64,000 bases of DNA, taken from contig JAXDQU010000106.1 in the NCBI GenBank assembly GCA_034667685.1, positions 64,001-128,000 of the forward strand, given 5' to 3'. Both the position numbers and the translations under genes were made by a program. This DNA is from Thermoplasmata archaeon (GTDB taxonomy: Archaea > Thermoplasmatota > SW-10-69-26 > JACQPN01 > JAJPHT01). Shown here piece by piece: positions 4,981-41,000 of the stretch (position 1 is the stretch's first letter; every line of letters begins with the position of its first letter). The notes below the pieces were generated by a model. The model worked only from the letters and a program-made list of their open reading frames with translations, searched no databases and was not told the origin of the DNA.

Positions 4981-5765
4981 AGGTCGCGGACCACCTCGTC
5001 CAGCGTGGCCTTGCCGTGGACGAGGCGGCCCACGGCGCGCGTGATGCCGGCGACGTCCTTGTGCTGCCAGAGGTTGCGTCCGACCGAGACGCCCGCGCCG
5101 CCCGCGGCGAGCGAGCCGGCGACCATCTCCAGGAAGGCGCGGTCGGTGTCGGCCTTGGGGCCGCCGCTGATGACGACGGGCACGTCCACGGACCGCACGA
5201 CCTCGCGGAACGTGTCGGGCGAGCCCGTGTAGGGGACCTTGATGATATCAGCGCCCAGCTCGTAGCCTAGGCGCGCGACCTTCTTGACGAGCTTGAGGTC
5301 GTGCGGGTTGGTGATCTCGTGGCCGCGCGGGTACATCATGGCCAGGAGCGGGAGGCCGTAGCGGTCGCAGTCGTCCGAGAGACGGCCCACGTCCTCGATC
5401 ATGCGCGACTCCTCGGGGCTGCCGACGTTCACGTGGACCGAGAGCCCGTCCGCGCCCAGGCGGAGCGCCTCCTCGACCGACGCGACGACGCGCTTGTCGT
5501 TGGGGTCGGGGTTGAGGCCCGTGCTGGCGCTCACGTGGAGCCACACGCCCATCCCGCCGACGCTGCCCGCCAGCGAGCGCACGACGCCCTTGTGGACGAC
5601 GATGCTGTCGGCGCCGCCCCGCGCGACGGCGGCCGCGGTCTCGGCCGGCCGCTCCAGGCCGGGGAGGGGGCCGTCGCTGACGCCGTGGTCCATGGGGACG
5701 ATGACGCCCTTGCCTTCCGCACCGAGGAGGCGGCGGAGCCGGAGCCGCTTGCCAACGCTTGTCAT
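4977..5765 (-). CDS. aroA': 2-amino-3,7-dideoxy-D-threo-hept-6-ulosonate synthase (class I aldolase)
   Basis: GKRLRL, PMDHG, PLLAMMYPRG, ELGADIIK and GRNLWQH motifs; first gene of the operon, adjacent to aroB'. Confidence 0.9.
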   Translation of the reverse strand: MTSVGKRLRLRRLLGAEGKGVIVPMDHGVSDGPLPGLERPAETAAAVARGGADSIVVHKGVVRSLAGSVGGMGVWLHVSASTGLNPDPNDKRVVASVEEALRLGADGLSVHVNVGSPEESRMIEDVGRLSDDCDRYGLPLLAMMYPRGHEITNPHDLKLVKKVARLGYELGADIIKVPYTGSPDTFREVVRSVDVPVVISGGPKADTDRAFLEMVAGSLAAGGAGVSVGRNLWQHKDVAGITRAVGRLVHGKATLDEVVRDL

Positions 5766-5833
5766 GGTCTGTCGAGGGTGTATACGCGCGGGCATATCAA
5801 GACATTGCTCCGCAAGATTGGTCATCGCCACTG

Positions 5834-5854
5834 TCCAGAAGTCGCCATTCTGGA
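5834..5854. promoter_or_regulatory. inverted repeat TCCAGAA-N7-TTCTGGA in the divergent aro/regulator promoter (candidate operator)
   Basis: Perfect 7-bp arms immediately upstream of a TTTATG TATA-like box. Confidence 0.4.
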
Positions 5855-5893
5855 AGGATTTATGACTCCGCTGCGCATCCTCGATCATTGGCC

Positions 5894-6394
5894 ATGTGGG
5901 ACCTTCTCACGCGCTACTTCCAGCGCTTCCCCGCCCAGAGCCGCGTCGCCCAGACGCTCCTCACCCAGGGACTGAGCGTGCGCGACGACGGCGTCTACTC
6001 GGGAGAGGTCGCCATCAGCGACACGGCCCTCGCCCGCGCGTGCGGCGTCGACCGGCGCATCATCGCCGCCACGGTCGAGACCATCCGCCGCGAGCCGGAG
6101 CTCCAGAAGGTCTACTCGCGTCTCCAACCCACCGGCCTCCTCAAGGACGTCGCGCCGCAGCTGCGCTGGGGCGTCATCGAGATCGTCCCCAGCGACGCGC
6201 GCGAGCCCGGCATCCTCGCCCACGTCGCCACCGTCATCGCCAAGCGCGGGCTCTCCATCCGCCAGGCCATCGTCGACGACCCCGACCTCGTCGAGGAGCC
6301 GCGCCTCTACGTCATCACGGAAGCGCAGGTGCCCATGGACGTCATCAGCGAGATCCGCGAAGGGCACGGCATCAAGAGCGTCGTGATCTCGTAA
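5894..6394 (+). CDS. HTH + ACT-domain regulator of amino-acid metabolism (COG2150-like)
   Basis: FQRFPAQ..VA, ARACGVDRRII HTH, PGILAHVATVIA..LSIRQ ACT motif; divergent from the aro operon. Confidence 0.85.
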   Translation: MWDLLTRYFQRFPAQSRVAQTLLTQGLSVRDDGVYSGEVAISDTALARACGVDRRIIAATVETIRREPELQKVYSRLQPTGLLKDVAPQLRWGVIEIVPSDAREPGILAHVATVIAKRGLSIRQAIVDDPDLVEEPRLYVITEAQVPMDVISEIREGHGIKSVVIS

Positions 6395-6433
6395 CGGCGC
6401 GCGGACTTGTTTCCTGCAACGTGTTCCGTGCTT

Positions 6434-6575
6434 CCGTGCAACGTGAACGTGGAACGAACGCCGTGAACGAGAACGTGAACGACCGTCCCGGCTAGATCTG
6501 GCCAGATCTAGCCGAGCCGCGGCGCCGTCCTGCCGTTCACGTTCACGGCCAACGTTCACGTCGCACGTTGCACGG
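6434..6575. repeat. long imperfect inverted repeat with a central perfect 26-bp palindrome
   Basis: Ends CCGTGCAACGTG / CACGTTGCACGG; GTGAAC repeats versus GTTCAC repeats; palindrome CGGCTAGATCTGGCCAGATCTAGCCG at 6489-6514. Confidence 0.85.
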
Positions 6576-6651
6576 GACGCGCCCAAGTCGCCTGCGCCTG
6601 GAGCAAGCCATCATGTGCTCGCCGCGGGTTGAGGACGGCGTGCGCCCCCGC

Positions 6652-22018: not shown

Positions 22019-25000
22019 CTAAAGCCTTCTCCGGAGGTCGCCGCGAGTGCCCAGCGCGGCCAGCGCGAGCGCGGCCAGCGGCGCGAGGACGGGCATCGGC
22101 GCGTCGTGCGGGCTGGCCGGGGGTGGCGTGCCGTCCGTGCCCCAGCCCGAGAAGCGCGAGTCGCCCAGCGGGCGCACGATGCGGACGCTCCAGCCGCGGG
22201 CTTCGCTCGCCGCGCCCTCGGGGCCCACGGCGCGCAGGGCGACGTCGTGGTGCCCGGCCGGCAGGTCGCGGGTGGTGGCGTCGAGGCGCCATTCGCCGCC
22301 GCTGGCGTTGAGCGGGGTCCACGTGCCCGCGTCGAGGCGCCATTCGACGGTGCCGTTGTCCGCGAGGCGCCCCGCGGCGTGGACGAGGCCGTACGCGATG
22401 GGCGCGGGGGGCTCGTCGACGACGAGCGCGGGCGGGGGGCGCGCGACCTGGATCTCGACGCGCGCCTCCTTCTTGGCGTCGATGCCGTGGTAGGCGTCGA
22501 CGAGCGCGACGTGGAGGCCGGGCGTCATGCCGCGCAGCGGGACGGTGAAGGCGATCGGCTGGCCCACGACGTCCTGCCAGGGTCCCGCGTCGAGGCGCCA
22601 GCGGACGGCGGTGACGTTCTGCGGGTGGTAGGCGCTGCCCTGGAGGTCGTAGTCGGCGCCGACGGGGTCGAGGGGCGCGTTGGCCACGGTCAGGACGAGC
22701 GCCTGGTCCTGCGCGCCGTTGGCGATGGTGATCGGGACGCTGGCGAGGCCTTCGGCGCCGGCTTCGTCGACGACGCGGGCGACGAGCCGGTAGTCGCCGT
22801 CGGGGAACGCGGTGCTATCAAGGAGGAGCCGCCAGTTGGCGAGGCCCTGCGCGGGCATCCAGGGGGAGGGGCCCAGCGCGTAGGTGCGCGTGCCGGAGCG
22901 GAGCTGGACCTCCACCCGGGTGAGGTTGCGGGGGCCTTCGGCGTGGCCCAGGAGGGCGACGGAGCCGCGGAGCGGGTCGCTGGGGAGGGGTTTCCCGATG
23001 GCGATCGTGGGGGGCGCGAGGCTGGGCGGGGCGGGGTCGACCTGGATGGCGAGCTGGGCGGTGGCGGTGGCGCCTTCGTCGTCGAGGACGGTGAGCTTGG
23101 CGGCGTAGACGCCCGGCGCGGGGTAGACGAACGTGCAGCGGGTGGCGGCGCCGTCGCAGTCGGGGAGGCCGTCGCCGTCGGCGTCGAATTGATAGCGCGC
23201 GAGGCGGCCGTCGGGGTCGCGGCTCGCGTCGGCGACGAGCGTGAGGGGCCAGCCGGAGACGCCGGTGGGCGCGGTGAGGTTGGCCTGCGGGGGGACGTTG
23301 GCGATGCGCAGCGTGGTGTTGGCCTCCGCGGTGGCGCCGGCGGCGTTGCGCGCGACGAGGGAGACGACGTAGTCGCCCGCCCTGGCGTAGGCGTGCGTGG
23401 GCTCCAGCCCGGTCGCGTTCGTTCCGTCGCCGAAGTCCCACGCGAGCGAGGCGATCCCGCCCATGGCGTCGTTGCCCACGGCGCGGAACGAGACGGGCTC
23501 CAGCGCGCGCGGGTCGGCGGGCGCCGCGAGGATGGCGCGCACCTGCGGCGCGGCGTCGCCCACGAGGATTTGGCGGGTCAGGTTGGCGCTCAGGCCCCAG
23601 TCGTCGGTGATCGTGAGCGTCACGTCGTACGCGCCGGGGGCGGGGAAGGCGTGCGCGACGTCGCGCCCCCAGGCGCCGAAGCTCCACGACCAGTTGACGA
23701 TATCACCGTCGGGCTTGCGCGAGAGGTCGAGGAAGCCCACGGGCTCGCCGGCGCGCGGGGCCAGGGGCGCCCAGGTGAACGCCGGCGTGGGCGCGACGTC
23801 CTGCACGTCGACGAGCTGTGTCGCGGTCGCGGTGGCGCCGGGCGCGTCCTGCACGGTGAGGGAGACGACGTGCGGCCCGCGCGCGACGAAGCGGTGCGTG
23901 GGGCTCGCGTCCGCGCTGGCGGCTCCGTCGCCGAAATCCCAGTGGCGCGCCACGAGCTGCCCCTCGGGGTCGAACGAGTCGTCCTCGAAGCTCACCTCAT
24001 CGAGCAGCGTGGGCGCGGCGGGCGCGAGGCGGAGGCGCGCGACGGGCGGCGCGTTGGCGATGGCGACGAGCGCGCTGGCGACGGGGCTCGCGGCGCCGCG
24101 GTCGTCGTAGACGGTGAGGTTCGCGCGGTAGAGCCCCTCCTGCGCGTAGCGGTGCGCCACGCTTGGCGAGGCGCCGCTCGCGGTCGCGCCGTCGCCGAAC
24201 TGCCAGGCGTAGCGGACCACGCGCCCGTCGGCGTCGGAGGCGTCGGCCCGGAACGAGGTGTCCGCGACCGCGAGCCCCGCGTCGACGTGGAGCGCGGCGA
24301 TGGGGGCCCGGTTGAGGGCGACGAGCGAGGCGTCGAGCGTGGCGGCGCGGCCGTGGTCGTCGTGCGCGAGGACGCGCAGCGCGTGGCCGCCAGGCGAGGC
24401 GAGCGCGACCTGCGCGGTGGCGCCCCGCGCGACGTCGACGCCATCGAGCGTCCAATGCGCGTCGGGATCGGCGGGCGCCAGGGAGAACGACAGCGGCGTC
24501 CCGGTGGGGCGCGGCGCCTCGTCGCCCGCGATGCCGGCGGAGCGGGGCGTCCGCACCGCGAAGGCGGACTCGCGCGGCGCGCCCTGCTGGCCGGCGCCGT
24601 CCACGGGCGTCGCGCGGACGACGTGCGTGCCCGAAAGGAGGCCGTCGACCTGCACCTGCCACGTCCACGCGCCGCCGTGCGCGGGTGCCGAGACGGGGGG
24701 CGCATCGTCGAGCGAGACGAGCACGCGCGCCGTGGAGGGGGAGACGACGCCGCGCGCGAGGATGCACGGCCCGGGGCACGAAGGATCGCCCGCGGAGCCG
24801 AACGCGTCGCCAGGTTGGGGCGCCTGGATCGCGAGCGTGGGCGGCGGGGTCGCGCCCGCGGCGACGTCGGACAGGGCCGGGAGGCTCGTCGCGTCGTCGC
24901 GGTGCGCGATCGCCACGAGGCGCGTGAGGCCCGCGGGGAGGTCGACGCTCGCGCGCCAGGCGGAGCCCACGAGCGTCGCGGGGATCGTCCGGTCGCCGAC

Positions 25001-26266: not shown

Positions 26267-26308
26267 AACTAGGGAAGCAACTAGACGACCAACTAGGTGA
26301 GTCACTAG
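26267..26308 (+). promoter_or_regulatory. four (A/C)ACTAG direct repeats at exact 12-bp spacing abutting the start codon
   Basis: AACTAG at 26267, 26279 and 26291; CACTAG at 26303; ATG at 26309. Confidence 0.75.
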
Positions 26309-29100: not shown

Positions 29101-30420
29101 TTAGCCGAAGGCCGCGGCGGGGCTCTTCATCGCCTCGCGCAGCAGGCACGTGGCGTAGCTTCCCTTCAGCAGGAAGAAGCGGAGCAGGAGGCGCTCGCCG
29201 GCGTCGTCGGCGCCCGCGTCCCACGAGACGGGGCCCAGGGGAGCCAGAAGCTCGCGGCGGGTGCCGAAGCTGGCGACCTCCGGGAGGTGCGGGATGCGGA
29301 AGTCGCGCTGCCGATAGCCCGCCTCGGCGAGGACGTCGCGCTCGATCTCGCCCATGCGCCCTTCCGCCAGGCGCGAGCCGGTGCCCGCGATGGCGCCGGT
29401 GACGAGCGCCGCGCCCTTCGCGCACAGGCGCGCCACGCGCGCGTGGTTGAGCGGCGTGACGGCGTGCAGGCGCTCCTTGTCGGGACGCCCCTCCGCGTCG
29501 AGCCCCACGACGAGATCGCCGGGGCGCGGCTCGTTGAGGCCGATGCCTTCGCCCATGCGGCGGCTCACGATGCGGTTGAACAGGAGGCTCTGCGCGGCGT
29601 AGACGAACATGGTGCGCAGGTTGCTGGGCAGCGACAGGAGCGCGCCCTCGAAGTCGCGCGGGTGGCGCGCGAGGTGCTCCAGCATCGTGCGCTCGAAGCC
29701 CGCGTAGCGCGGGAAGCGCGCGAAGCTGGACTCGGCGTCGCGCGTGGCGTCGTAGTGCGCGCGCGCCTCGCGCAGCTCGTCGGACTCGGCCGGCTGCGGG
29801 TTGCCCACGTAGAGGCGCACGGCCTCCTCCAGGTCGCCCCGGACGATCTGCTCGCCCACGAGGTGCGTCACGGGGCGCACGACGCCGAAGCGCTGCACGC
29901 CGAAGTAGTTGGGGAAGCCCCCCTCGGCCTCGATGCGCGCGAGGATCGCGTGCAGGCTCTCCGCGGCCTCCTTGAGGGGGACGTCCGTCTCGCGCAGCGC
30001 GATGACGAAGCGGTTGCCCACCAGCTCGCCGATCTTGGGCGCGCGGTCCACGCGGCGCGTCTCCAGCACCTCGACGTCCTTGAGGTCCAGCGCGCGCACG
30101 CGCTCCTCGGGGGCGCGGAGGCTGACGTACTGCGTCGTGACGGCGCGCTTGTCCTTCGTTCCGGCGAAGAAGATCGTCTCGCGCGGCACGTTCAGGACGC
30201 GCGCCAGCTCGCCCATGAGGCGGTTGGTCTCCCAGTTGCGCACGCGCAGCGCGGCCACCGTGTACTTGCCCTCCGCCACGGGCGCGGGGAAGGCGAGCGG
30301 GACCTCCTCGACGACGAAGTCCTCGGGGCGGCTCTTCAGCCGGCCGCCGGTGCCGGGCAACGCCGCGGTGAGGTAGCGTTCGAGCCCGAGCGCCTTCTCA
30401 AAATCGCCGGGCTCGATCAT
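29101..30420 (-). CDS. truD: tRNA pseudouridine(13) synthase
   Basis: EDFVVEE, AGTKDKRAVTTQ, GNRF, PNYFGVQRFG, KGSYAT.LLRE. Confidence 0.95.
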   Translation of the reverse strand: MIEPGDFEKALGLERYLTAALPGTGGRLKSRPEDFVVEEVPLAFPAPVAEGKYTVAALRVRNWETNRLMGELARVLNVPRETIFFAGTKDKRAVTTQYVSLRAPEERVRALDLKDVEVLETRRVDRAPKIGELVGNRFVIALRETDVPLKEAAESLHAILARIEAEGGFPNYFGVQRFGVVRPVTHLVGEQIVRGDLEEAVRLYVGNPQPAESDELREARAHYDATRDAESSFARFPRYAGFERTMLEHLARHPRDFEGALLSLPSNLRTMFVYAAQSLLFNRIVSRRMGEGIGLNEPRPGDLVVGLDAEGRPDKERLHAVTPLNHARVARLCAKGAALVTGAIAGTGSRLAEGRMGEIERDVLAEAGYRQRDFRIPHLPEVASFGTRRELLAPLGPVSWDAGADDAGERLLLRFFLLKGSYATCLLREAMKSPAAAFG

Positions 30421-30429
30421 CGCATCGGC

Positions 30430-30708
30430 TCACTGGCCGGACGCGCGGACCAGCAGGGTCTCGAGCTCGTCGAACTGGGCGCGCAGCTCCTTGGCCGCGG
30501 TCTTGAGGGCCGCATCGGGCTTGCCGTTCTTGGTCTCGACGACGAAGAGCGGGTTGTCGAGGTACGGGTGGCCCATGACGTAGGTCGCGGTCTCGACGCT
30601 GGGGTCCTGGAGGAGCTTCTGCTTGAGGAGGTTCAGCAGCGTGTCGTTCTCGCCGATGACCTCGATCTCGAGCTTGTTGGCGGTCTTGTTGCGGAGGCGG
30701 AGTTCCAT
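30430..30708 (-). CDS. rpoL: DNA-directed RNA polymerase subunit Rpo11/L
   Basis: GENDTLLNLL...V..ATY.MGHP; next to csl4. Confidence 0.92.
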   Translation of the reverse strand: MELRLRNKTANKLEIEVIGENDTLLNLLKQKLLQDPSVETATYVMGHPYLDNPLFVVETKNGKPDAALKTAAKELRAQFDELETLLVRASGQ

Positions 30709-30717
30709 GAAGAGACC

Positions 30718-31287
30718 TCAGAGGATGGTGCCGACGCCGAAATCCTCGGCGAGCTTCTTGGTGTCCTTCCAGTCGCACTCGGGGCAGACGACGCCGCGGC
30801 CCTTCCGGGCCATGACGCTGCCGCAGCGCGGGCAGTAGGACTTCAGGACCCCGAGGTTCGGGGCCTTGGTGGTGAGCTGGATGGCGGGATCGGACTCGAT
30901 CACCTTGGCGCGGATGATATCACGGATGCGGAACGCGCTCTCCATGCTCTCGACGTACTGGTCGCTGCTCTTGGAGACGTGGAGCGTGCCGTTGGTGTCG
31001 CCGCCGATGCCGCGGTTGGGGTGGCTGGCCAGCGCCTTGACCTCGACGATCGCCATGCTGGGGCGCGTGGCGTGCACGACGCCGAGCACGATGTCGCCGG
31101 GCTTGACGACGGCGGGCTGCGCGACCAGCGGGTGGACGCGCGCCACGAAGTCCGAGGTGTCCAGCGTGAGCGTGCCGAACGTCGCGGCGTAGACCTCGCC
31201 GTTCTCCTCGTAGGTGCCGGGCCCGGGAACCCATTCCTCGGCGACGCCGACGGAATCCCCGGGGTAGACGAGACGCCGCTCCGCCAT
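30718..31287 (-). CDS. csl4: exosome subunit Csl4
   Basis: VYPGD, GPGTYE, S1 domain, LGVLKSYCPRCG...CPEC; TTTATA box about 30 bp upstream. Confidence 0.93.
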   Translation of the reverse strand: MAERRLVYPGDSVGVAEEWVPGPGTYEENGEVYAATFGTLTLDTSDFVARVHPLVAQPAVVKPGDIVLGVVHATRPSMAIVEVKALASHPNRGIGGDTNGTLHVSKSSDQYVESMESAFRIRDIIRAKVIESDPAIQLTTKAPNLGVLKSYCPRCGSVMARKGRGVVCPECDWKDTKKLAEDFGVGTIL

Positions 31288-31361
31288 GAAAACCTGCGGC
31301 GAGCAAAGGGGCACCCCTATAAAGCCGCTCCGGGCCAAGACTTAGGAACGTGAGTACGGGA

Positions 31362-31459
31362 CTACGGTGACAGAGAACCGAAACGCTCGTCTACGGGCTG
31401 GACTCCCGTAAGCAAGGATTGGTTCTCCGTAGAAGGCATGACTGGCTTACGGGAGAGCC
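31362..31459. ncRNA. putative structured RNA with crossed (pseudoknot or switch) helices
   Basis: CTACG..GAGAACC pairs with GGTTCTCCGTAG; GGCT..CTCCCGTAAGC pairs with GCTTACGGGAGAGCC; the helices interleave; lower GC than the flanks. Confidence 0.45.
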
Positions 31460-32042
31460 GAAGCGCCACGACGTCGACCTCGTGGACGGCCTTCTCGTGG
31501 TGCCGGTACTGATGCCGCAGCGCGAACCGGAGCGCCCAGGCGTGCGTGGGATGGAACCCCGCCGCCTCGGCGTAGGACTCCACGAAGGCGCGCGTCGCCG
31601 CGTTGTGCAGCGTGTAGACGACGGGCGCCGCGCGGAAGGCGGCGTTGAGGAAGACGCGATCCGCGCCCCGCTGCTGCGCGCCGAAAGGCGGGTTCATCAC
31701 GATCGTGTCGGCCGCGCCACGCCACGCCGCGACGTCGGCCTCCACCCACGCGACCCCGGCGCCCAAGCCTTGCGCAGCGCGCCGCGCGACGGCGAGCGCC
31801 TCCGGGTCCACGTCGACGCCCACCGTCTCCGCCGCGCCCAGGAGCGAGGCGCCGATCGCGAGGACGCCCGTGCCGCAGCCCAGATCCGCCACGCGGCGGC
31901 CCGTGATATCACCGAGCGCCAGCGCCTCGTGCAGCAGCGGCGCCGCCAGATCGGCGGGCGTCGCGTACTGCTCCAGGTGCAGCTTCGGCTTCGGATGCGG
32001 TGGCACTTTTGATAGTATGCGCTCAAGATCGCGCAAGCGCAA
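31362..32042 (-). CDS. METTL5-family RNA methyltransferase
   Basis: LEQYATP, DLGCGTG and MNPPFG motifs; about 25-aa atypical C-terminal extension. Confidence 0.9.
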   Translation of the reverse strand: MRLRDLERILSKVPPHPKPKLHLEQYATPADLAAPLLHEALALGDITGRRVADLGCGTGVLAIGASLLGAAETVGVDVDPEALAVARRAAQGLGAGVAWVEADVAAWRGAADTIVMNPPFGAQQRGADRVFLNAAFRAAPVVYTLHNAATRAFVESYAEAAGFHPTHAWALRFALRHQYRHHEKAVHEVDVVALRLSRKPVMPSTENQSLLTGVQPVDERFGSLSP

Positions 32043-32043
32043 T

Positions 32044-32091
32044 CGCTATCACCAAGAAATGATAGCGCGATAGCAATAACAGTTAGCTATC
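32044..32091. promoter_or_regulatory. AT-rich spacer with two adjacent inverted repeats built from GCTATC/GATAGC boxes
   Basis: CGCTATCA-N8-TGATAGCG followed by GATAGC-N11-GCTATC. Confidence 0.55.
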
Positions 32092-32524
32092 ACATGACCT
32101 CGGGTCCGTGGATGGCCCCCTTCTGCTGCGCAGGCTGCTGCGGCGTGAAATTCACCTGCGGAAGCGGGATCGGCGGCGGAAGCTGCAGATCCTTCGCGAT
32201 CCCCACCGCCTGCGGCACGCAAACGCGCATCACCGTGCTGTGGATCTCCGTCGCCGCGTCAGGCGCCATCTGGTTCGTCGTGCGCCACGCCGCCTCGAAA
32301 GCCTTCGCATCGCACGTGAAGTTCATGTTCCCCTCGATCCGGATCACGCCCACCGCCCCATAGGCCGCCGTGTAGCGGAACTCCACGTTGACCTCCTGCG
32401 GCGTGACCTCCTTCACAAGCGTCACCGTCGACGAATGGTCGATCCGGATGTTGGGCAGCCGCTCGTTGGTCTTCGAGTACCGCTTGGCCTCGATCCCAGT
32501 GAGCTCCAGACGCGTGACGGGCAC
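32090..32524 (-). CDS. conserved archaeal hypothetical protein (possibly SecB-like fold)
   Basis: VEFRYTAAY...IRIEG...IAKDLQLPPPIPLP; TATA box about 28 bp upstream of the GTG. Confidence 0.7.
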   Translation of the reverse strand: MPVTRLELTGIEAKRYSKTNERLPNIRIDHSSTVTLVKEVTPQEVNVEFRYTAAYGAVGVIRIEGNMNFTCDAKAFEAAWRTTNQMAPDAATEIHSTVMRVCVPQAVGIAKDLQLPPPIPLPQVNFTPQQPAQQKGAIHGPEVM

Positions 32525-32599
32525 GATGCGGGGGACGCGGCGAGGCCGCCTTATAGGTGACGCCGCCCGACGCGGCACCTGCACGCTCGCCCCGACGCC

Positions 32600-32720
32600 T
32601 GGTCGCGCCAGCCGGCGCCGGGCGCCGCCGCGAAGAACGCTCTAGAGCATTGTTGGGCAAGGTGGCGCAAGGTAGCGCGAGGCGGCGCCGGGTCGGTGCA
32701 GCCAGCGCCGCGTGCCGCAT
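32600..32720. repeat. dispersed TCTAGA-centred element, copy 1, with about 10-bp periodic GC-rich flanks
   Basis: ACGCTCTAGAGCATTGTTG (32637-32655) matches 40971-40989 at 18/19 positions. Confidence 0.6.
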
Positions 32721-32963
32721 GGCGCCACTTTCGGGCACCTCCGTTGCGCATTGCCTTCCTCGGGTGCCGTCGTCGGGTGGTTTGGCGCTTCTCCCGTGGA
32801 GTCCCTGGCGTGCCGTTCTTCGTCGTCGTGTCGCGTGTGTGAGCATGCGCTGGCGGGTGGGGGGTGCGCGTTGGAGGAGGCGGTGGATGTGGCGCTTGCG
32901 CCGCGGCTTCCTGTGGCGGTGCGTGTGGTGGGGCCTTTCGCAGCTTCGTCTTGATTCAGGGAT

Positions 32964-34079
32964 TTAGCCCAGTTTCTTTTTGATGCTGTCGAAGAGGCCT
33001 TTGTTTTTGGGTTCGCGTCCTTCGAGGCGGGCGAGGTCTTCGAAGAGTTTGCGTTCTTCGGGGCTGAGTTTGGCGGGCGTGTAGAGGCGGGCGTGGGCGA
33101 GGAGGTCGCCGCGGCGGTTGCCGTGGAGGCTGGGGAGTCCTTTGCCGCGGAGGCGGAAGGTTTCGCCGGATTGGGTGCCGGGTGGGATGGTGAGGGTGTC
33201 GCGTTTGCCGTCGAGGAGGGGGACTTCGACTTCGTCGCCGAGGGCGGCTTGGCTGAAGGTGAGGGGGATGGGGACGTGGAGGTCGTCGCCTTCGCGGGTG
33301 AAGACGGGGTGGGGTTTGATGCGGACGCGGACGTAGAGGTCGCCGTCGGGGAATCCGTCGGGGCCGGCTTCGCCTTCGCCGCGGAGTCGGAGGGCGCCTC
33401 CGTCGGGGACGCCTTCGGGGAGGTGGATGGTGAGGGTGCGTTGGCGTTGGAGGCGTCCGGCGCCTTTGCAGGCGGGGTCGGGGGTGGCGACGGTCTCGCC
33501 GCGGCCGTTGCATTGGGGGCAGGGGCCGGCGGTCTGGACGAGGCCGAAGGGGGTGCGCATCTGGCGGGCGACTTGGCCGTGTCCTTTGCAGGTGGGGCAG
33601 CGGGTGGGGCGGGTGCCGGGTTTGGCGCCGTTTCCGCCGCAGGTTTCGCAGCGTTCGAGGCGGGCGATGCGCAGCTCTTTTTCGGCGCCTCGGGCGACTT
33701 CTTCGAGCGTCACTTCGACTTGGGTTTGGAGGTCGCGTCCGCCTTGGGGTCCGCCGAAGCCGCCGCCGAAGAGGTTGCGGAGGATGCTTCCCATGTCGAA
33801 GCCCATGTCGCCGAAGTCGGCGCCGCGGAAGATGTCTTCCTGGGTGTAGCGTTCGTCGAATCCGGCGTGGCCGTATTGGTCGTAGGTGCGGCGCTTCTCG
33901 TCGTCGCTGAGGACGGCGTAGGCTTCGCTGATCTCCTTGAAGCGTTCTTCGGCGCCCGGCTCCTTGTTGCGGTCGGGGTGGTATTGGAGGGCGAGCCTGC
34001 GGTAGGCTTTCTTGATGTCGTCGGCGTTGGCGTCCTTCGGCACGCCGAGCAATTCGTAGTAGTCGGCCTTCGTCGCCAT
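32964..34079 (-). CDS. dnaJ: chaperone DnaJ
   Basis: J domain HPD, G/F region, CxxCxGxG repeats. Confidence 0.97.
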
Positions 34080-34155
34080 GGCGCGCGAGCTTCCCAGCGG
34101 GGCCCTGCGCTTGAACCTAGCTACCCTTTTGGGCCTGGCGCGCGTGCCCGGCCGC

Positions 34156-34524
34156 ATGGGTCTCGTCAAGATCGTCCTGACGCTGGTGGGCGTGCTGATC
34201 CTCGCCGTCGTGGGGCTGGCCGCTTATCTCTATTTCACGGACTATGGCGCGCAGGCCTCGATCACAGGCAAGGGGAGCGACGCGCAGGGCGACTACGTGC
34301 TCGTGACGCCGAAGCTTTGGCCGAGCTATCATCTGACGCAGCGCCTCGACGCCAACACGGCGGCGTTCGTCTGCACGGGCTATCAGGTGACGTTCCACGT
34401 GAACACGCACCACACGCTCGTGTATGACGGGGCGGGGACGCTCGTCTACGACAGCGCGAAGAGCGGCGTCCAGAATCCTGGCGCCGTCGCGCGCTGCGCC
34501 GCCTCGAGCGGTGGAGTTCTGTAG
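34156..34524 (+). CDS. membrane-anchored hypothetical protein
   Basis: N-terminal TM helix, small beta domain, 2 Cys. Confidence 0.65.
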
Positions 34525-34736
34525 CGCCGGAGCCGAGCGCGCCCCGCGCGCTCGGGCGCAGGCGCCCGCCCGGCGCGGTGTCGCAGGCCCGCGCCGCACG
34601 GCGCGGAGCCGGAGACCGCCCGCGCAGCGGGCGATTCGCGCCGGGCGGAGTTGAGAACTAGAGTTGTCCTCTGTCGCTGCTTGGGTGCACGCAAAAGGCT
34701 TTCAATGCCCGGGGCTACGCGGCGGCGGGGAGCGCC

Positions 34737-37700
34737 GTGCGCCAGCCAGCCGTTTCGAGGATCGCCGTCATCTGGATCTCCGCGCTCACGCTGACGCCCG
34801 TCGTGGGCGGCGCTTGGGCCGATGCCCAGCTTCTCCCCGCGCCGACGGGCTTCTCCGCCGTCGCGCTTTCCCCGAGCGCCATCGCCCTTTCGTGGGACGC
34901 CGTGGACGGCGCGCACTCGTACCACGTCGAGCGTTTCGCGGGCGAGTCGTGGACGCCCGTCGCGGACGTCAACGCGACGAACGTCACCGACGCGGGCCTT
35001 GAGGCCAACACGTCCTACACGTACCACGTCTGCGCGTGGGACGGCTCCGCCTGCGGCGTCGTCTCGGAGAGCGCGAGCGCGACCACGCTCCCCACTCCGC
35101 CGCCCGCCGCGCCCGCCTCCCTCGTCGCCACGCGCGGCTCGGGCAGCGCCTACGCCGACGTCCACCTGGCATGGAGCGCCGTCGAGGGCGCGACCGGCTA
35201 CACGCTCTCGCGCGCCGACGCGGCGAACGAGACCACCCTCGTCTACGCGGGCAACGCCACGGGCTTCGACGACCTCGCGCTCGCCGGCGGCGCGTACGTC
35301 TGGAGCGTCGCCGCGACGTCGGACGCCGGGACCAGCGCGCCCACGGCGAGCAGCTCCCTCGTGGTCCCCGCGGGTCCGCCCGTCACGGACCTGCGCGCGA
35401 CGGGGCTCACGAGCACCTCGCTCTCGCTCGTCTGGGACGCGCCGCAGGGCGCCGCCGGCTTCCTCGTCAACGGCACGCCCGTCGAGGCCGCGCAGCTTGA
35501 CCTCGCGGACCTCGTGGCGTGCGGCTCGTACTCGTTCGACGTCGTCGCGCGGTACGAGGGCGGCGTGAGCGACCCCGTCACGCTCCGCGTCGCGCTGCCA
35601 GGCTGCATGCTCTGGTACGACGCCGCCTCGCCCGCCAACTCGGCCACGCAGCTCGCCGACCTGAGTGCCGCGGGCGACGACGGCGCGCTCCTGAACATGG
35701 CCGCGGGCCCCGCCAACGGCACGCTCGCCTTCGACGGCGTCGACGACCTCGTCGCGGGCGGCGCGCTCTTCCACGCGCCCGACTCCTTCACCGAGGCCGT
35801 CCGCTTCCGCACCACGAGCGCCTCCGGCATCCTCGTCTCGTTCCAGGACTCGCGCGACCTCGCCCCGTCGCGCTTCGACCGGCGCCTCTTCCTCGACGGC
35901 CAGGGGCGCGTCGGGTTCGGCGTCTGGGCGGACGGCGCGCCCGATGACCCGCGCGTGATCCGCAGCGACGCGCGCTTCGACGACGGCCAGTGGCACACCG
36001 CGGTCGCCACGATCGGCGCCACCGGCTCCGACGCGGGCGCGATGCTCTACGTCGACGGCACGCTCGTCAACCAGACCCCGAGCAACGACAAGCAGGTCTA
36101 CGACGGCTACTGGGTCGTGGGCGGCAGCCGCAACACGTACTGGGAGAGCGTCCTCCCGCAGCCCATGTTCCGCGGCGAGATCGCGATGGTGAAGGTCTAC
36201 GACGGCATCGTCCCGCCCGCGCCCGCCGCGCTGGGCCCCGCCACGCACCTCGCCGTCTCGCGCGGCCCCGCGCTGGGCGAGGCGAGCCTGTCCTGGTGGC
36301 CCGCGCCCGGCGCCGAGCGCTACGCGGTCAACCTCACCGGCCCCTCCTTCCCCAACGGCACCGAGGTCGACGCGGGCCCCGCGCGCACGGCCGACTTCCC
36401 GGACCTCCTCGCGGGCGACTACGCGTTCACCGTGCTATCGTTCCAGGGCGACGCCTCGGCCGCGAGCGAGCCCGTCACCGGCCAGCCCGCCACCGCGCCC
36501 GGCGCGCCCGCGAGCGTCACCGCCACGCCGGTCTCGCCTGGCGTGGTCCGCGTCGCGTGGAGCGCGCCCGACGACACGGGCGGCGTGCCCGTCCAGCATT
36601 ACGAGGTCTCCGCGGACGGCGAGCCGCGCACCACCACGCTGGGCACCACGTTCGGCGTCAACCTCGCGGTGCCCGAGGACGGCGCCGTCCACGTCTTCGG
36701 CGTCCGCGCCAACACCAGCGCCGCGGCGGGCCCGGAAGCGCTCGCCAACGCCACCGCCGCCTGGGCGCCCAGCCCCGTCGCCTCGCTCTGGAGCGAGCCG
36801 GGCGCCGAGGTCGGCGAGGTCAACCTCACGTGGCTGGCGCCCGCCACGCACGCCGCGCCCCTCGCGGGCTATCACGTCTGGCGCGACGGCGCCATCGTCG
36901 CCACCACCAACGCCACGCGCTTCGTCGACGCCAACCGCACGCCCGGCGCGCGTTCCTCCTACAACGTCACCGCCGCGAGCGACGCGGGCGAGAGCGCCGC
37001 GGGCCTCACCGTGACCGAGGTCGCGCGCCCCGCGCTCGTGGGCTGCCCGACCAGCACGAGCGTCTCGGTCTACGCCTGCCAGCAGGTGCCCTTCGGGCTC
37101 TACGCGCTGCCGGCCAACGCCTCCTCGCCCACGAGCATGCGGTGCGACGACTGCGTCAGCTCGCCGCTCGCGCTCCCCTTCGCGTTCCCGATGTTCGGGC
37201 GTCTCTACACGCAGGTCAACGTCACGACCAACGGCCTGCTCCTTTTCGGGAGCACCGACTACGGATGGAGCTACTCGCCCGTCGGCATCCCCACCGATGG
37301 CTCGCCCGCCGGCATGATCGCCGGCTACTGGAGCGACCTCGACGGCCGCGCCATCGGCAACGTCCGCTACGCGACGCTCGGCGAGGCGCCCCACCGCCTT
37401 TTCGTAGTCTCGTGGGAGCGCATGGGCGAGTACAGCTGTTACTACCTTCCCTACTGCGGTCCCGGCAACGCCACGTTCCAGGTCGCGCTCCACGAGGACA
37501 GCGGCGCCGTCGAATACCAGATCGCCTTCGCGGCGATGGACCACCACTACGCCACCGTCGGCCTCGAGGATGAGACGGGAACCTACGGCCTGACGATCTT
37601 CCACGGCACCGCGCCTCTCGCGCGCCAGGGCTTCCTCCTGATCCCGCCCAATGCGCCGCCCGTCGGAGCGCCCACCGGCGTCTCCGTCCACGCGACCGCG

Positions 37701-40869: not shown

Positions 40870-41000
40870 CCGGCGCCGCGTGCCTGCGCCAGGCACCACG
40901 TCGATGCACCAGGCGCCGGGTCGCGCAACGGGGCGCCGGGTGGCGCGACCTTGCCGCACCTTCACCATCGACGCTCTAGAGGATTGTTGCATTCGCGCGG
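40870..41000. repeat. dispersed TCTAGA-centred element, copy 2
   Basis: Reverse complement of 40931-40980 aligns ungapped to 32641-32690 at 38/50 positions. Confidence 0.6.

Follow-up and report, generated by a model that had tools for sequence, protein, structure and literature searches.

By analogy, the closest known system to the locus described here is GRINS. By definition these elements are repeats with another copy that is more than 80% identical; most are found in bacterial polyketide synthases, and they have been linked to gene conversion (PMC8256042). The authors who described them suggest that one strand undergoes C→T and A→G transitions and, in their Discussion, mention single-copy skewed regions (PMC8256042). 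The island that we describe around dnaJ in an archaeon resembles GRINS in its intense, kilobase-scale GC and TA skews that agree in sign, which lie within working genes and mostly at third positions, and in encoding a protein recoded in a G+T-rich or C+A-rich alphabet. Unlike GRINS, the dnaJ island is single-copy and archaeal, extends across a spacer and three unrelated genes, has two sides about a point, and is datable to one lineage.

Strand asymmetry also accompanies replication and transcription. Bacterial leading strands are G/T-rich, and their skew jumps upward at origins; the dnaJ island shares the sign of the GC and TA skews on the outward strand and the upward jump at a point, but it is 1–2 kb long and several times stronger, has no orc1 near it, and belongs to a pattern with a dozen or more sites in this one genome. 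In the heavy-strand gradient of vertebrate mtDNA, C→T and A→G changes build up on the strand that is single-stranded longest. The island is similarly graded with presumed exposure and shows at silent sites irrespective of which way a gene points. The mitochondrial gradient, however, extends over the entirety of a small genome that replicates by strand displacement, and here we deal with short chromosomal islands that have two mirror arms. Transcription-associated asymmetry gives a G/T-rich non-template strand downstream of starts and an upward jump at divergent promoters. A 164-aa gene and a small ORF of the island are G/T-rich on their coding strands, whereas the skew of dnaJ, gatE and other genes opposes the direction in which they are transcribed. 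For archaea, passages of a 2026 survey of skew credit gene orientation and translational selection, not mutation, and these passages do not mention local islands (PMC12999951).

Results

The window is the whole stretch of DNA that was analysed, 64,000 nt of contig JAXDQU010000106.1 (C106, positions 64,001 to 128,000) from the 124-contig assembly GCA_034667685.1 of a soil-dwelling Thermoplasmata archaeon. The host lineage (G000) was compared with its congeners G003, G004 and G001, and the set of 2,319 ORFs came from an in-house GC3-based caller, not from annotation. Paired counts (x/y) give plus-strand A/C→G/T changes over the reverse, at third positions of conserved residues, in host versus congener; flip denotes right-minus-left skew around a site.

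The base counts in the preliminary description are exact (28 G, 12 C, 14 T and 6 A at 33181–33240; 25 C and 16 G at 32341–32400). Positions 33001–34000 have a GC skew of 0.283 and an AT skew of -0.376, both the largest in magnitude among the 64 1-kb bins of the window, and the best 600-bp segment reaches (G+T-A-C)/N = 0.373, which ranks 1 of 34,137 genome-wide (z = 5.0). Maximum-likelihood change-points place the strongest plus-strand G/T-excess block at 32760–34039 (1,280 bp), with a G+T fraction of 0.666 against 0.491 outside it (range 30000–37000), and all seven 400-bp segments starting at 32600–33800 have positive GC skew and negative AT skew. On the left, the C-richness claimed earlier is present as a mild C/A excess (GC skew -0.11 to -0.13 at 32000–32599). 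The sign changes between the 100-bp bins 32500–32599 (-0.06) and 32600–32699 (+0.12), within the 270-bp spacer that separates the 164-aa gene from the small ORF, and the untranslated 32647–32795 is likewise G/T-rich on the plus strand (+0.18). The TCTAGA at 32641–32646, proposed as the centre of the flip, does lie within the flip zone, but the centre itself is placed only to about ±100 bp. Skew dies away within about 2 kb rightward and 1 kb leftward, in keeping with the fading over 1–2 kb that had been noted by eye.

The gene dnaJ (32964–34079, minus strand; 371 codons; Pfam DnaJ, DnaJ_CXXCXGXG and DnaJ_C) lies in the right arm and has G, C, A and T at 8%, 74%, 17% and 0% of third positions, with 0 of 371 codons ending in T. 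On the reading proposed below, its silent sites would have been pushed toward C because it is encoded on the opposite strand of this arm, with A taken wherever C alters the amino acid. Its reported preference for AAA, GAA and CAA holds: GAA encodes 24 of 29 Glu (14% in the genome), AAA 14 of 21 Lys (4%) and CAA 11 of 14 Gln (10%), and GCC encodes 27 of 28 Ala. This is the most extreme codon use among the 2,319 ORFs, of which dnaJ ranks lowest in third-position GC skew and highest in A3-T3; the A-ending share of Lys, Glu and Gln codons is 0.76 (50/66) in the extended 419-codon ORF that contains dnaJ and 0.55 in the next-highest ORF. G3 counts per 62 codons, read 5' to 3', fall toward the centre (17, 5, 5, 1, 0, 3). 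The skew is strongest at third positions, and the protein still looks functional.

Compared with G003, dnaJ scores 103/4, and its codons are ordinary in the nearest congener. Parsimony assigns 42 G→A and 36 G→C to the 101 changes on the host branch (841 informative sites). Amino-acid changes share the bias (7 G→A and 4 G→C of 28), and first- and second-position changes number 28 on the host branch and 28 on the G003 branch. Among 29 dnaJ orthologues checked, none at a locus with GC of at least 0.58 has G3 below 0.27. The codons of host dnaK are ordinary (AAA/AAG 1/46, GAA/GAG 6/46, CAA/CAG 0/22); this gene is C3-rich, without a G/T excess on its coding strand. Here, dnaJ is a conserved single-copy housekeeping gene recoded at nearly every silent site within one species-level lineage.

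Convergent with dnaJ in the right arm is a small conserved plus-strand ORF (32796–32954; 52 codons plus stop) with a C-x5-C-x2-CEH cysteine motif, whose orthologues sit downstream of dnaJ in G003, G004 and G001. Its codons end in G or T, at a G3+T3 of 0.88 versus 0.56, 0.59 and 0.49 in these three genomes, respectively. In the left arm, a minus-strand 164-aa ORF without a Pfam family (32090–32584; conserved part from near 32524) has G3, C3 and T3 of 0.59, 0.30 and 0.10, versus 0.45, 0.52 and 0.01 in G003; at 4/36 (p 1.9e-7), its own strand has moved to G/T-ending codons. A minus-strand methyltransferase gene (31362–32042; Pfam MTS/PrmA) forms the fading end of this arm (15/32, p 0.019), genes beyond it are balanced (Rrp4-like 11/15), and the remainder of the contig scores 873/781 against G003. 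These data show that the bias tracks the DNA strand rather than coding sense, because the opposite-strand small ORF is complementary to dnaJ and the same-strand 164-aa gene has shifted the opposite way.

The shift is two-sided and graded, with up/down counts per 400 bp moving off the centre of 28/1, 60/3, 58/9, 43/13 and 25/15, and it is reproduced against G004 and against G001. The polarity first described, C/A on the left and G/T on the right, is therefore real and particular to the host lineage, and the alignments date the skew to after the split from the nearest congener. Run X2, from a separate study, contains 31800–34567 with 0 differences, so the island is no artefact. In a third soil study (X3), 21 right-arm differences from one strain are informative, and at 19 of them that strain has the weaker skew (p 2.2e-4); the process appears to be still moving.

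The spacer contains short inverted repeats and 10-bp units. Around its TCTAGA lies an imperfect palindrome, AAGAACGCTCTAG/CTAGAGCATTGTT (32633–32654; inverted repeat I6, 85% complementary), with at best 9 pairs, short of our criterion of at least 11, and the fold of 32560–32740 is no stabler than that of shuffles (z +1.07). A 15-nt pattern around this TCTAGA has 2 copies in the genome, the other at 40974–40988, and in alignment the stretch that they share reaches about 19 nt. Aligned with G003 and G004, the spacer stretch 32566–32690 (about 125 bp, with alignment-dependent limits) is missing from G003; it contains the TCTAGA palindrome and three 10-bp units (GCAAGGTGGC / GCAAGGTAGC / GCGAGGCGGC), and TCTAGA is absent throughout the 232-kb syntenic contig of G003. 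Adjacent to it and upstream of the 164-aa gene, a minus-strand block (32544–32565) with a TATA-like TATAAGG and columns invariant in three genomes is probably the archaeal promoter of that leftward gene. A+T is 21% at 32525–32640 and 30% at 32647–32795, with no AT-rich stretch.

The same polarity had been reported at 3313, 6500 and 40978, and of these sites 3313 alone shows a lineage-specific flip. There the 20-bp palindrome CTAGATCTGCTGAGATCTAG (3304–3323; C106:67313) lies inside a minus-strand ORF and stands where G003 and G004 have some 22 nt instead. Its CTAGs at 3305/3321 have flips of 0.25–0.28, near the 99th percentile of the window; comparison with G003 gives 48/104 on the left and 105/48 on the right, and 3313 marks the second highest jump in an unbiased 105-kb scan. 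The copy at 6492–6511, in the middle of a 190-bp element that carries GTGAACG arrays, has no lineage-specific shift: the raw flip at 6493/6509 is an unremarkable 0.00–0.09, and against G003 the left of 6501 scores 62/46, the right side being unaligned. At the second TCTAGA of the window (40975–40980), the raw flip at 40977 is 0.14–0.17, about the 95th percentile, and is not lineage-specific (left 98/110, right 91/70; p 0.12). The remaining 14 CTAGs evaluated within the window have zero or negative flips.

As a class, CTAG does not behave as the preliminary description had supposed: 418 CTAGs away from ORF stops have a mean flip of 0.0016±0.0044, and a small all-CTAG signal stems from 176 CTAGs that are TAG stops, many of them at convergent gene ends. 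The 50 TCTAGA sites average 0.007±0.014. The word GGCC, with 38,359 occurrences in the genome or about one in every 90 bp, is too frequent to serve as a discriminating anchor. The 20-bp palindrome CTAGATCTGCTGAGATCTAG has 11 sites in the host and none in 20 relatives searched. Its six copies within the 190-bp element show no lineage-specific shift (summed left 362/350, right 328/274), and the two strongest jumps of the unbiased 105-kb comparison lie at most 75 bp from this 20-bp CTAG palindrome. Individual CTAG palindromes, at 32641, 3313 and C21:49979, are flip centres.

Further loci of the host genome show the same geometry; such islands are few and isolated and do not make up a genome-wide mosaic. 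Flips above 0.28 are upward in 13 cases and downward in 4 (p 0.049), and right of the other top centres plus-strand genes are G3/T3-rich and minus-strand genes C3/A3-rich. Clear lineage-specific two-sided flips occur at C35:13125, C56:24275, C105:3500, C106:67313 and C21:49979, and in part at C110:4400; two of the five clear loci lie on the 20-bp CTAG palindrome and the rest on unrelated inverted repeats without CTAG, where flips are equally strong. Hairpin-forming inverted repeats are enriched at flip centres: repeats of at least 11 pairs, a threshold picked after the data were seen, lie within 250 bp of 7 of the 13 top upward flips versus 10.4% of controls, which were 250 intergenic sites (p 1.3e-4). 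The majority of hairpin elements are without effect, with a mean flip of 0.021±0.008 at 131 inverted-array hairpin elements and 0.004±0.002 at 1,796 generic palindromes of at least 12 bp without CTAG. A weaker, one-sided G/T-rich patch at 22019–23500, where a 1,205-aa minus-strand ORF has its 3' end, scores 61/17 against a congener (p 5.7e-7), and profile and alignment reveal no CTAG, palindrome or insert at its edge.

On the outward strand of seven pooled loci, C→T exceeds G→A (144 vs 32), C→G exceeds G→C (202 vs 86), A→G exceeds T→C (25 vs 11) and G→T exceeds C→A (44 vs 21). Parsimony misplaces some changes, and the G003-branch imbalance of G→C over C→G (319 vs 135) is an artefact of that. 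The C→G excess and lowered G→C are not simple deamination products and may reflect multiple hits under genome GC pressure.

Discussion

We propose that the island has a strand-asymmetric mutational origin, whatever the cause, and assign this reading a probability of about 0.85. Local, lineage-specific, strand-asymmetric mutation would radiate about 1–2 kb both ways from a point in the spacer, and on each side the strand running 5'→3' outward would have been depleted of C, converted to T and G, and to a smaller extent of A, converted to G. Outward-running strands may be recurrently single-stranded or re-synthesised, through a putatively DNA-based trigger: synthesis, strand displacement or unwinding from a short hairpin-forming insert, which at the dnaJ site would be the one with TCTAGA. 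C→T could then arise by deamination and C→G by bypass of the resulting abasic sites. The polarity, two-sidedness and strand dependence match what outward synthesis or ssDNA exposure from a point would predict. Two DNA models, resection of broken ends and stalling of the lagging strand at hairpins, would by our reasoning bare the inward-running strand and produce a flip of the opposite polarity, and we rejected both.

For the DNA-based, insert-anchored version of strand-asymmetric mutation, we estimate a little less than an even chance. The dnaJ site is weakly anchored, with a loose centre, an imperfect palindrome and a shuffle-like fold. More tentative still, and rather unlikely, is the generalization that short hairpin-forming inserts are recurrent start points of outward synthesis or unwinding, with the species-specific CTAG palindromes and inverted short-repeat arrays serving as 'mini-origins' or priming sites and a mobile palindrome rewriting its neighbours within 1–2 kb.

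The dnaJ spacer is also a divergent promoter region, which makes transcription an equally local candidate. Promoters there could fire leftward into the 164-aa gene and rightward through the small ORF and antisense through dnaJ, leaving the same mutational footprint as non-template strands bared in bubbles or R-loops lose C; G-richness would steady the R-loops, making the process self-reinforcing up to saturation. The flip does fall in a divergent spacer, between a leftward TATA-like block kept in three genomes and a rightward ORF from 32796; the 164-aa gene and the small ORF are both G/T-rich on their own coding strands; C56:24275 and C79:103625 are likewise divergent gene pairs; and G3+T3 is greater at ORF 5' ends genome-wide (0.45–0.50, dropping to 0.40). 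This reading would, however, require that antisense transcription dominate across entire housekeeping genes, namely dnaJ, the gatE gene of C35 and the ORF that surrounds 3313, and the plus-strand TTTCTTTTT and TTTGTTTTT at 32975–33009 should halt a rightward transcript at the dnaJ 3' end, oligo-T runs being archaeal terminator signals. Moreover, the centre at 3313 is a palindrome of ~20–22 bp within an ORF, at C21:49979 two genes of the same strand meet, relatives have the small ORF facing dnaJ yet no skew, and dnaK, presumably highly expressed, lacks a coding-strand G/T excess. At human promoters, GC skew is tied to R-loops (PMC3787257). We regard divergent transcription as possible, if rather unlikely, as the cause at dnaJ.

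The other readings fare worse. That the island is itself a GRINS is improbable: at 1.28 kb it exceeds 500 bp, its GC and TA skews agree in sign and are far above 0.15, third positions are the most skewed and the protein looks functional, but blastn of 32700–34100 against the 124-contig assembly, which could lack an unassembled copy, returns only itself, the genome has one dnaJ match, and gene conversion is unable to explain a two-sided flip over three unrelated genes. Selection on dnaJ codons or mRNA, for C/A-ending codons that match the tRNAs, for a C/A-rich message free of structure or for translation tuned to stress, would suit a gene close to one codon per amino acid, in which AAA, GAA and CAA are codons read by U34 tRNAs and whose protein evolves no faster than in G003. 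We rejected translational selection, to which we give very little credence, because the bias does not follow coding sense: the opposite-strand ORF is complementary, the same-strand left gene is reversed and the untranslated spacer is skewed too, while dnaK and the 29 orthologues are ordinary, no other ORF is alike and amino-acid changes are biased likewise. The polarity, with the plus strand C/A-rich on the left and G/T-rich on the right, would also fit a canonical chromosomal replication origin; this is just as hard to credit, as a search for orc1 found none on C106, the four Cdc6_C (PF09079) matches lie on C64, C103, C42 and C23 and on no contig with any of the 13 top upward flips, skew dies away within about 2 kb and is not replichore-long, the spacer lacks an AT-rich stretch, and 13 or more sites far exceed the origin numbers of archaea, which to our knowledge are much lower. 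A foreign source, through recent horizontal transfer or through recombination with a donor of different codon use, would account for composition atypical within the genome and is the faintest prospect of all. Identity and gene order show dnaJ to be vertical and syntenic, where the preliminary description had allowed for recent transfer: 37 of the 41 genomes searched have an orthologue, and its identity follows kinship (84, 77, 76 and 72% within the genus, 55–64% within the family), gene order is conserved in G003, G004 and G001, dnaJ is 83% identical to G003 among neighbours at 71–90%, and no plausible donor would restrict the codons of one strand to C/A and those of the other to G/T and then reverse this next door.

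The recoding of dnaJ, which follows the DNA strand and not the gene, calls for caution before odd codon use is read as transfer or as expression-level selection. The locus offers a natural experiment for mutation biology, with a dated, two-sided and graded footprint, element-free sister genomes as controls and soil strains that are still diverging. The skew of GRINS, unexplained since 2021, could be tied to a physical start point and hence become testable. Small mobile palindromes would, should the anchor prove real, act as local mutators of their surroundings. If hairpin inserts are indeed start points, this would be site-directed, strand-specific mutagenesis of a kind undescribed in prokaryotic chromosomes, one that hits silent sites and some amino acids of housekeeping genes.

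Extreme strand skew over dnaJ

The genome analysed (G000; 3.48 Mb in 124 contigs, 71% G+C, completeness rating 99%) has archaeal gene content, with Rrp4-like, TruD and Cdc6/Orc1 genes. Its dnaJ (32964–34079, minus strand, 371 codons; Pfam DnaJ, CXXCXGXG and DnaJ_C) lies in a region of intense strand skew. The 1-kb bin at 33001–34000 has a GC skew of 0.283 and an AT skew of −0.376, both the largest in magnitude among the window's 64 bins, and the top 600-bp window, with G+T minus A+C of 0.373 per base, ranks first of 34,137 genome windows (runner-up 0.313). A change-point fit sets the skewed block at 32760–34039, that is, dnaJ plus about 200 bp past its stop. The preliminary description had held that a G/T-rich plus strand recodes dnaJ; this core observation is right and exceeds chance, and the two base counts given for it match ours exactly.

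Third positions of dnaJ are G 0.08, C 0.74, A 0.17 and T 0.00, against 0.39, 0.54, 0.03 and 0.04 in the genome. GAA serves for 24 of 29 Glu, AAA for 14 of 21 Lys, CAA for 11 of 14 Gln and GCC for 27 of 28 Ala, and T-ending codons number zero. dnaJ is the extreme of 2,319 ORFs (our own calls by a GC3-minus-GC2 rule with no curated annotation behind them, covering 76% of the genome) in both third-position GC skew and A3−T3. In the extended 419-codon ORF containing dnaJ, 50 of the 66 positions for Lys, Glu or Gln use an A-ending codon (genome 0.10; next ORF 0.55). One 80-codon window has zero G3 and zero T3, and G3 counts per 62 codons, from the 5′ end to the spacer, run 17, 5, 5, 1, 0 and 3.

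Five sequencing runs, labelled as soil metagenomes, contain this stretch, and none of them is listed as RNA. An assembly artefact is ruled out by two of them, each from a different study: in one (X2), 31800–34567 is present in three contigs with 0 differences, and the other (X3) holds a close variant. The upstream neighbour of dnaJ, on the opposite strand, encodes a 2,024-aa surface protein (fn3, Laminin_G_3). Between a conserved upstream block and the dnaJ start, the nearest congener (G003) has about 640 bp extra (window 34119–34082 versus 5324–5998 of its dnaJ locus, L031), either a deletion in G000 or an insertion in G003.

A two-sided, lineage-specific substitution bias

We compared third positions of conserved residues with G003 in plus-strand orientation, counting A/C-to-G/T changes in G000 against the reverse (written x/y below). 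The counts are 103/4 for dnaJ (p = 6.6e-26), 4/36 for the adjacent 164-aa gene (p = 1.9e-7), 15/32 for the methyltransferase gene (p = 0.019), 11/15 for the Rrp4-like gene (not significant) and 873/781 for the remaining aligned contig. A frame-free count over all aligned bases gives the same two-sided picture against G003 and two further congeners, G004 and G001. Per 400 bp against G003, counts run 28/1, 60/3, 58/9, 43/13 and 25/15 rightward and 9/22, 22/48 and 29/34 leftward; the polarity thus fades from the centre, as first described, and is gone within 2 kb.

The sign changes within the 270-bp spacer between the 164-aa gene, whose conserved part begins near 32524, and a small ORF (32796–32954). 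A TATA-like block at 32544–32565 is conserved in three genomes. About 125 bp of the spacer (roughly 32566–32690) are missing in G003, and G004 carries a different insert, of GCGCACCTG-like units, at the same position. The G000 insert comprises an imperfect palindrome, AAGAACGCTCTAG/CTAGAGCATTGTT, and three 10-bp CAAGGTG-like units; X3 covers part of it poorly or not at all (0.61 and 0 in the bins at 32646–32833). The flip had been described as centred on TCTAGA; that hexamer does lie inside the flip zone, but the centre can be placed only to about ±100 bp. Folded as single-stranded DNA, 32560–32740 reaches −52.4 kcal/mol, where shuffles average −55.8 (z = +1.07), so this spacer has no special structure beyond that of shuffles, and Rfam returned 0 matches at E ≤ 1 over 31500–35000. 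A promoter and terminator scan, with bacterial rules (sigma-70, hairpin-plus-T) ill-suited to an archaeon, returned a single promoter-like and a single terminator-like site, neither of which enters the argument. At 22019–23500, a weaker patch skewed on one side only has no inverted-repeat centre of this type.

The bias belongs to the strand

A dnaJ match was found in 37 of 41 genomes searched, with identity that tracks kinship: 84, 77, 76 and 72% within the genus, 55–64% across the family and roughly 50% at the level of the order. In G003, G004 and G001, dnaJ, the 164-aa gene and the methyltransferase, Rrp4-like and TruD genes follow one another as they do in G000. None of 29 orthologues examined has the dnaJ codon pattern, the nearest (G003) having G3 0.41, C3 0.56, A3 0.02 and T3 0.01. 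Together these rule out recent horizontal transfer, which the preliminary description had named as a competing source of the codons. Parsimony with three outgroups assigns 101 changes to the G000 branch among 841 informative sites (G>A 42, G>C 36); at third positions of dnaJ, the branch has G>A 35 and G>C 32 versus C>G 2. First- and second-position changes in dnaJ number 28 on each of the G000 and G003 branches, so the DnaJ protein is evolving no faster in G000.

Selection on dnaJ codons is ruled out as well. The small ORF (52 codons, plus strand) faces the dnaJ 3′ end, a position conserved in G003, G004 and G001; it has a C-x5-C-x2-CEH motif followed by a GC motif, starts with GTG in G000 and ATG in G003 and G004, and gave no Pfam match when tested as part of a longer frame. 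Its G3+T3 is 0.88 in G000 versus 0.56, 0.59 and 0.49 in G003, G004 and G001. The 164-aa gene, left of the spacer, shares the strand of dnaJ yet has moved the opposite way (G3/C3/T3 0.59/0.30/0.10 versus 0.45/0.52/0.01 in G003), untranslated 32647–32795 is likewise G/T-rich (+0.18), and dnaK (C12:7536–9323) has ordinary codons (AAA/AAG 1/46, GAA/GAG 6/46, CAA/CAG 0/22). The bias is thus a property of the plus strand and not of the message. dnaK is the single HSP70 match and lies on another contig, unlinked to dnaJ.

Palindromes, hairpin arrays and other flips

The preliminary description had extended the pattern to CTAG palindromes in general. The genome has 768 CTAG sites. The mean flip (right-minus-left skew) of all CTAGs together is 0.011 ± 0.004, and this small value comes from 176 that coincide with ORF stops (0.032 ± 0.006), several of the highest being TAG stops at, or common to, convergent gene ends. 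The other 418 CTAGs average 0.0016 ± 0.0044, ruling out CTAG as a general anchor. The mean is 0.007 ± 0.014 at 50 TCTAGA sites and 0.004 ± 0.002 at 1,796 perfect palindromes of at least 12 bp without CTAG. TCTAGA, GCTAGC, CCTAGG, AGATCT and 15 other 6-bp palindromes have mean flips that for the most part differ from zero by no more than about 2 standard errors, with a maximum below 0.04. Two of the sites cited for the generalisation also fall away: against G003, the flips at 40975 (98/110 and 91/70) and 6501 (left 62/46; right side without alignment) are not lineage-specific.

A 19-nt motif, ACGCTCTAGAGnATTGTTG, is common to both TCTAGA sites of the window (32637–32655 and 40971–40989), which have no homology beyond it; neither TCTAGA is present in the syntenic G003 contig. 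This motif is ruled out as an anchor by the 40975 result and by the copy number of its 15-nt pattern, only 2 in G000. CTAG, TATA and TTAA are strongly avoided genome-wide (0.084, 0.17 and 0.20 of expectation); GGCC (0.69, one per about 90 bp) and CCGG (0.51) are under-represented, and TCGA, GATC and ACGT occur 2- to 2.8-fold more often than expected. Upstream of an AbrB/recombinase module, 26267–26308 holds four CAACTAG-type units of 12-bp period (CTAG at 26269, 26281, 26293 and 26305), a spacing also found in G003 (C33:194584–194620).

Unlike CTAG as a class, one particular CTAG palindrome does matter. G000 has the sequence CTAGATCT-N4-AGATCTAG at 11 sites, and it is absent from all 20 relatives searched. 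Two copies are bare (3304–3323 and C21:49970–49989) and stand in place of about 20–40 nt found in G003, which at the C21 site has a different hairpin. Both are two-sided and lineage-specific against G003: 48/104 left and 105/48 right at the first, bearing out the flip centre described at 3313, and 23/62 and 59/21 at the second. They are the top two jumps in 105 kb alignable on both sides with G003, a sample enriched for palindrome sites through the choice of loci. Each of the other nine copies forms the centre of a 190-bp element (for example 6420–6590, C106:70501, plus 8 other G000 sites). In this element, GTGAACG/GAGAACG/TTGAACG heptamer arrays make up the arms on either side of the perfect palindrome CTAGATCTGGCCAGATCTAG; its empty site in G003 is clean at C14:11702. 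Every one of the 8 sites in the palindrome family that could be evaluated has a positive raw flip (mean 0.13, p = 1.4e-4 versus intergenic controls). Six comparable embedded copies are nevertheless balanced against element-free relatives (summed, left 362/350, right 328/274), which rules out the 190-bp element as the cause; the raw signal is older than the element or reflects its insertion sites.

Genome-wide, flips beyond 0.28 number 13 upward (C/A-rich left, G/T-rich right) versus 4 downward (p = 0.049). At these sites, genes to the right of the centre are rich in G3/T3 when on the plus strand and in C3/A3 when on the minus strand. A further four of the strongest flips were compared with congeners. 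Lineage-specific shifts on both sides are present at C35:13125 (3′ end of gatE), C56:24275 and C105:3500, and C110:4400 is clearly shifted on its left side only. At C110:3880–4860, the centre of the genome's strongest raw flip, 880 bp are unalignable with three congeners; by eye, an apparent small minus-strand gene on the left uses G/T-ending codons and a CsbD-like small gene on the right C/A-ending ones. The C35 and C56 flips are centred on inverted arrays of 9-bp CAGGTG/CACCTG units, of which G000 has only three (C35:12988–13097, C56:24340–24450 and C79:68461–68570; flips 0.39, 0.48 and 0.12). G004 has a similar array between dnaJ and the 164-aa gene (L032, about 2300–2480).

Inverted repeats of at least 11 pairs, a threshold set after the data were seen, lie within 250 bp of 7 of the 13 top upward flips versus 10.4% of 250 intergenic controls (p = 1.3e-4). 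Hairpin-capable, lineage-specific inserts are enriched at flip centres. Inverted-array elements, defined as 3–25 tandem 6–10-bp units followed within 120 bp by an equal number of reverse-complement units, speak against such an anchor: they number about 145 in G000, and the 131 evaluable ones have a mean flip of only 0.021 ± 0.008. Their families include CACGAAGG, CGCCAACA, GGGCTCA, GGGAAGAC, CCGATT, AGCCTC and CGTTCA, and 63942–64015 (C106:127942–128015) is an example. The 232-kb syntenic contig of G003 has none of these palindromes; its flips stay within ±0.23 with equal tails and are mostly not lineage-specific, so strong islands are not found there. A general C/A-rich drift at gene 3′ ends was not seen, G3+T3 being 0.40–0.41 across the final 180 codons and 0.50 in the final 20.

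Substitution spectrum

Changes on the G000 branch, polarised with G003 plus G004 or G001, were pooled over the arms (100–1500 bp) of seven loci and read on the outward-running strand. C>T numbers 144 versus 32 for the complementary G>A, C>G 202 versus 86 for G>C, A>G 25 versus 11 for T>C, and G>T 44 versus 21 for C>A. Loss of C from the outward strand predominates. Multiple hits may raise the C>G class, given the strong GC pressure at silent sites, where an A-ending codon is tolerated only if C would change the amino acid. Polarisation by parsimony also errs: the apparent excess of G>C on the G003 branch (319 vs 135) is a mirror artefact.

Discussion

Substitution bias at these loci is strand-based, dated, graded and two-sided. 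We propose that the outward-running strands would be recurrently single-stranded or re-made, and three processes fit the polarity: an origin-like bubble exposing the lagging-strand template, an outward-extended displacement loop, and non-template strands exposed by divergent transcription or R-loops. The last has in its favour that the dnaJ spacer is a divergent promoter region. However, at four of the seven loci it would need dominant antisense transcription through whole housekeeping genes; a 22-bp palindrome within an ORF forms one of the centres; and two plus-strand T-runs at the dnaJ 3′ end should stop such a transcript, as T-runs terminate archaeal transcripts. On these grounds we consider transcription less probable and lean towards a DNA-based start at the insert, with a probability of about 0.45.

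A canonical replication origin in the dnaJ spacer is unlikely: the skew is short-ranged, the spacer is not AT-rich, and all four orc1/cdc6 matches, the check proposed for the origin reading, lie on contigs other than that of the window. Two further sources are rejected on polarity, by reasoning alone. Break resection would leave the inward-running 3′ strand exposed and produce the opposite flip, and hairpin stalling on the lagging strand (Okazaki synthesis), of opposite polarity too, would open a gap in the inward strand on its near side. Of the cause first suggested, the site-anchored, outward, strand-specific form was right and the extension to CTAG wrong; the cause itself is unproven.

The closest published kind, in the part of the literature source available, is GRINS, genetic repeats with intense nucleotide skew: stretches of kilobase length in which intense, correlated GC and TA skews recode functional genes, of unknown mechanism, for which the authors speculate on C>T and A>G changes on one strand (PMC8256042). 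By that part of the description, the dnaJ stretch has the length and skew of GRINS but lacks the defining repeat; conversely, an archaeal host, a single-copy housekeeping gene, a pattern with two sides about a point and an origin that can be dated are present here and absent from it. Among the papers found on GRINS, archaeal strand asymmetry, local skew and R-loops, the GRINS follow-ups are PKS-related only and none describes local skew islands in archaea; a 2026 survey, in its available part, puts archaeal skews down to gene orientation and translational selection (PMC12999951). We rate the dnaJ island as a variant of an already known kind of skew that has no published explanation. The strain in X3 is less skewed than G000 at 19 of 21 informative right-arm differences (p = 2.2e-4; contigs of depth 3–4), which suggests that the skew is still changing inside the species.
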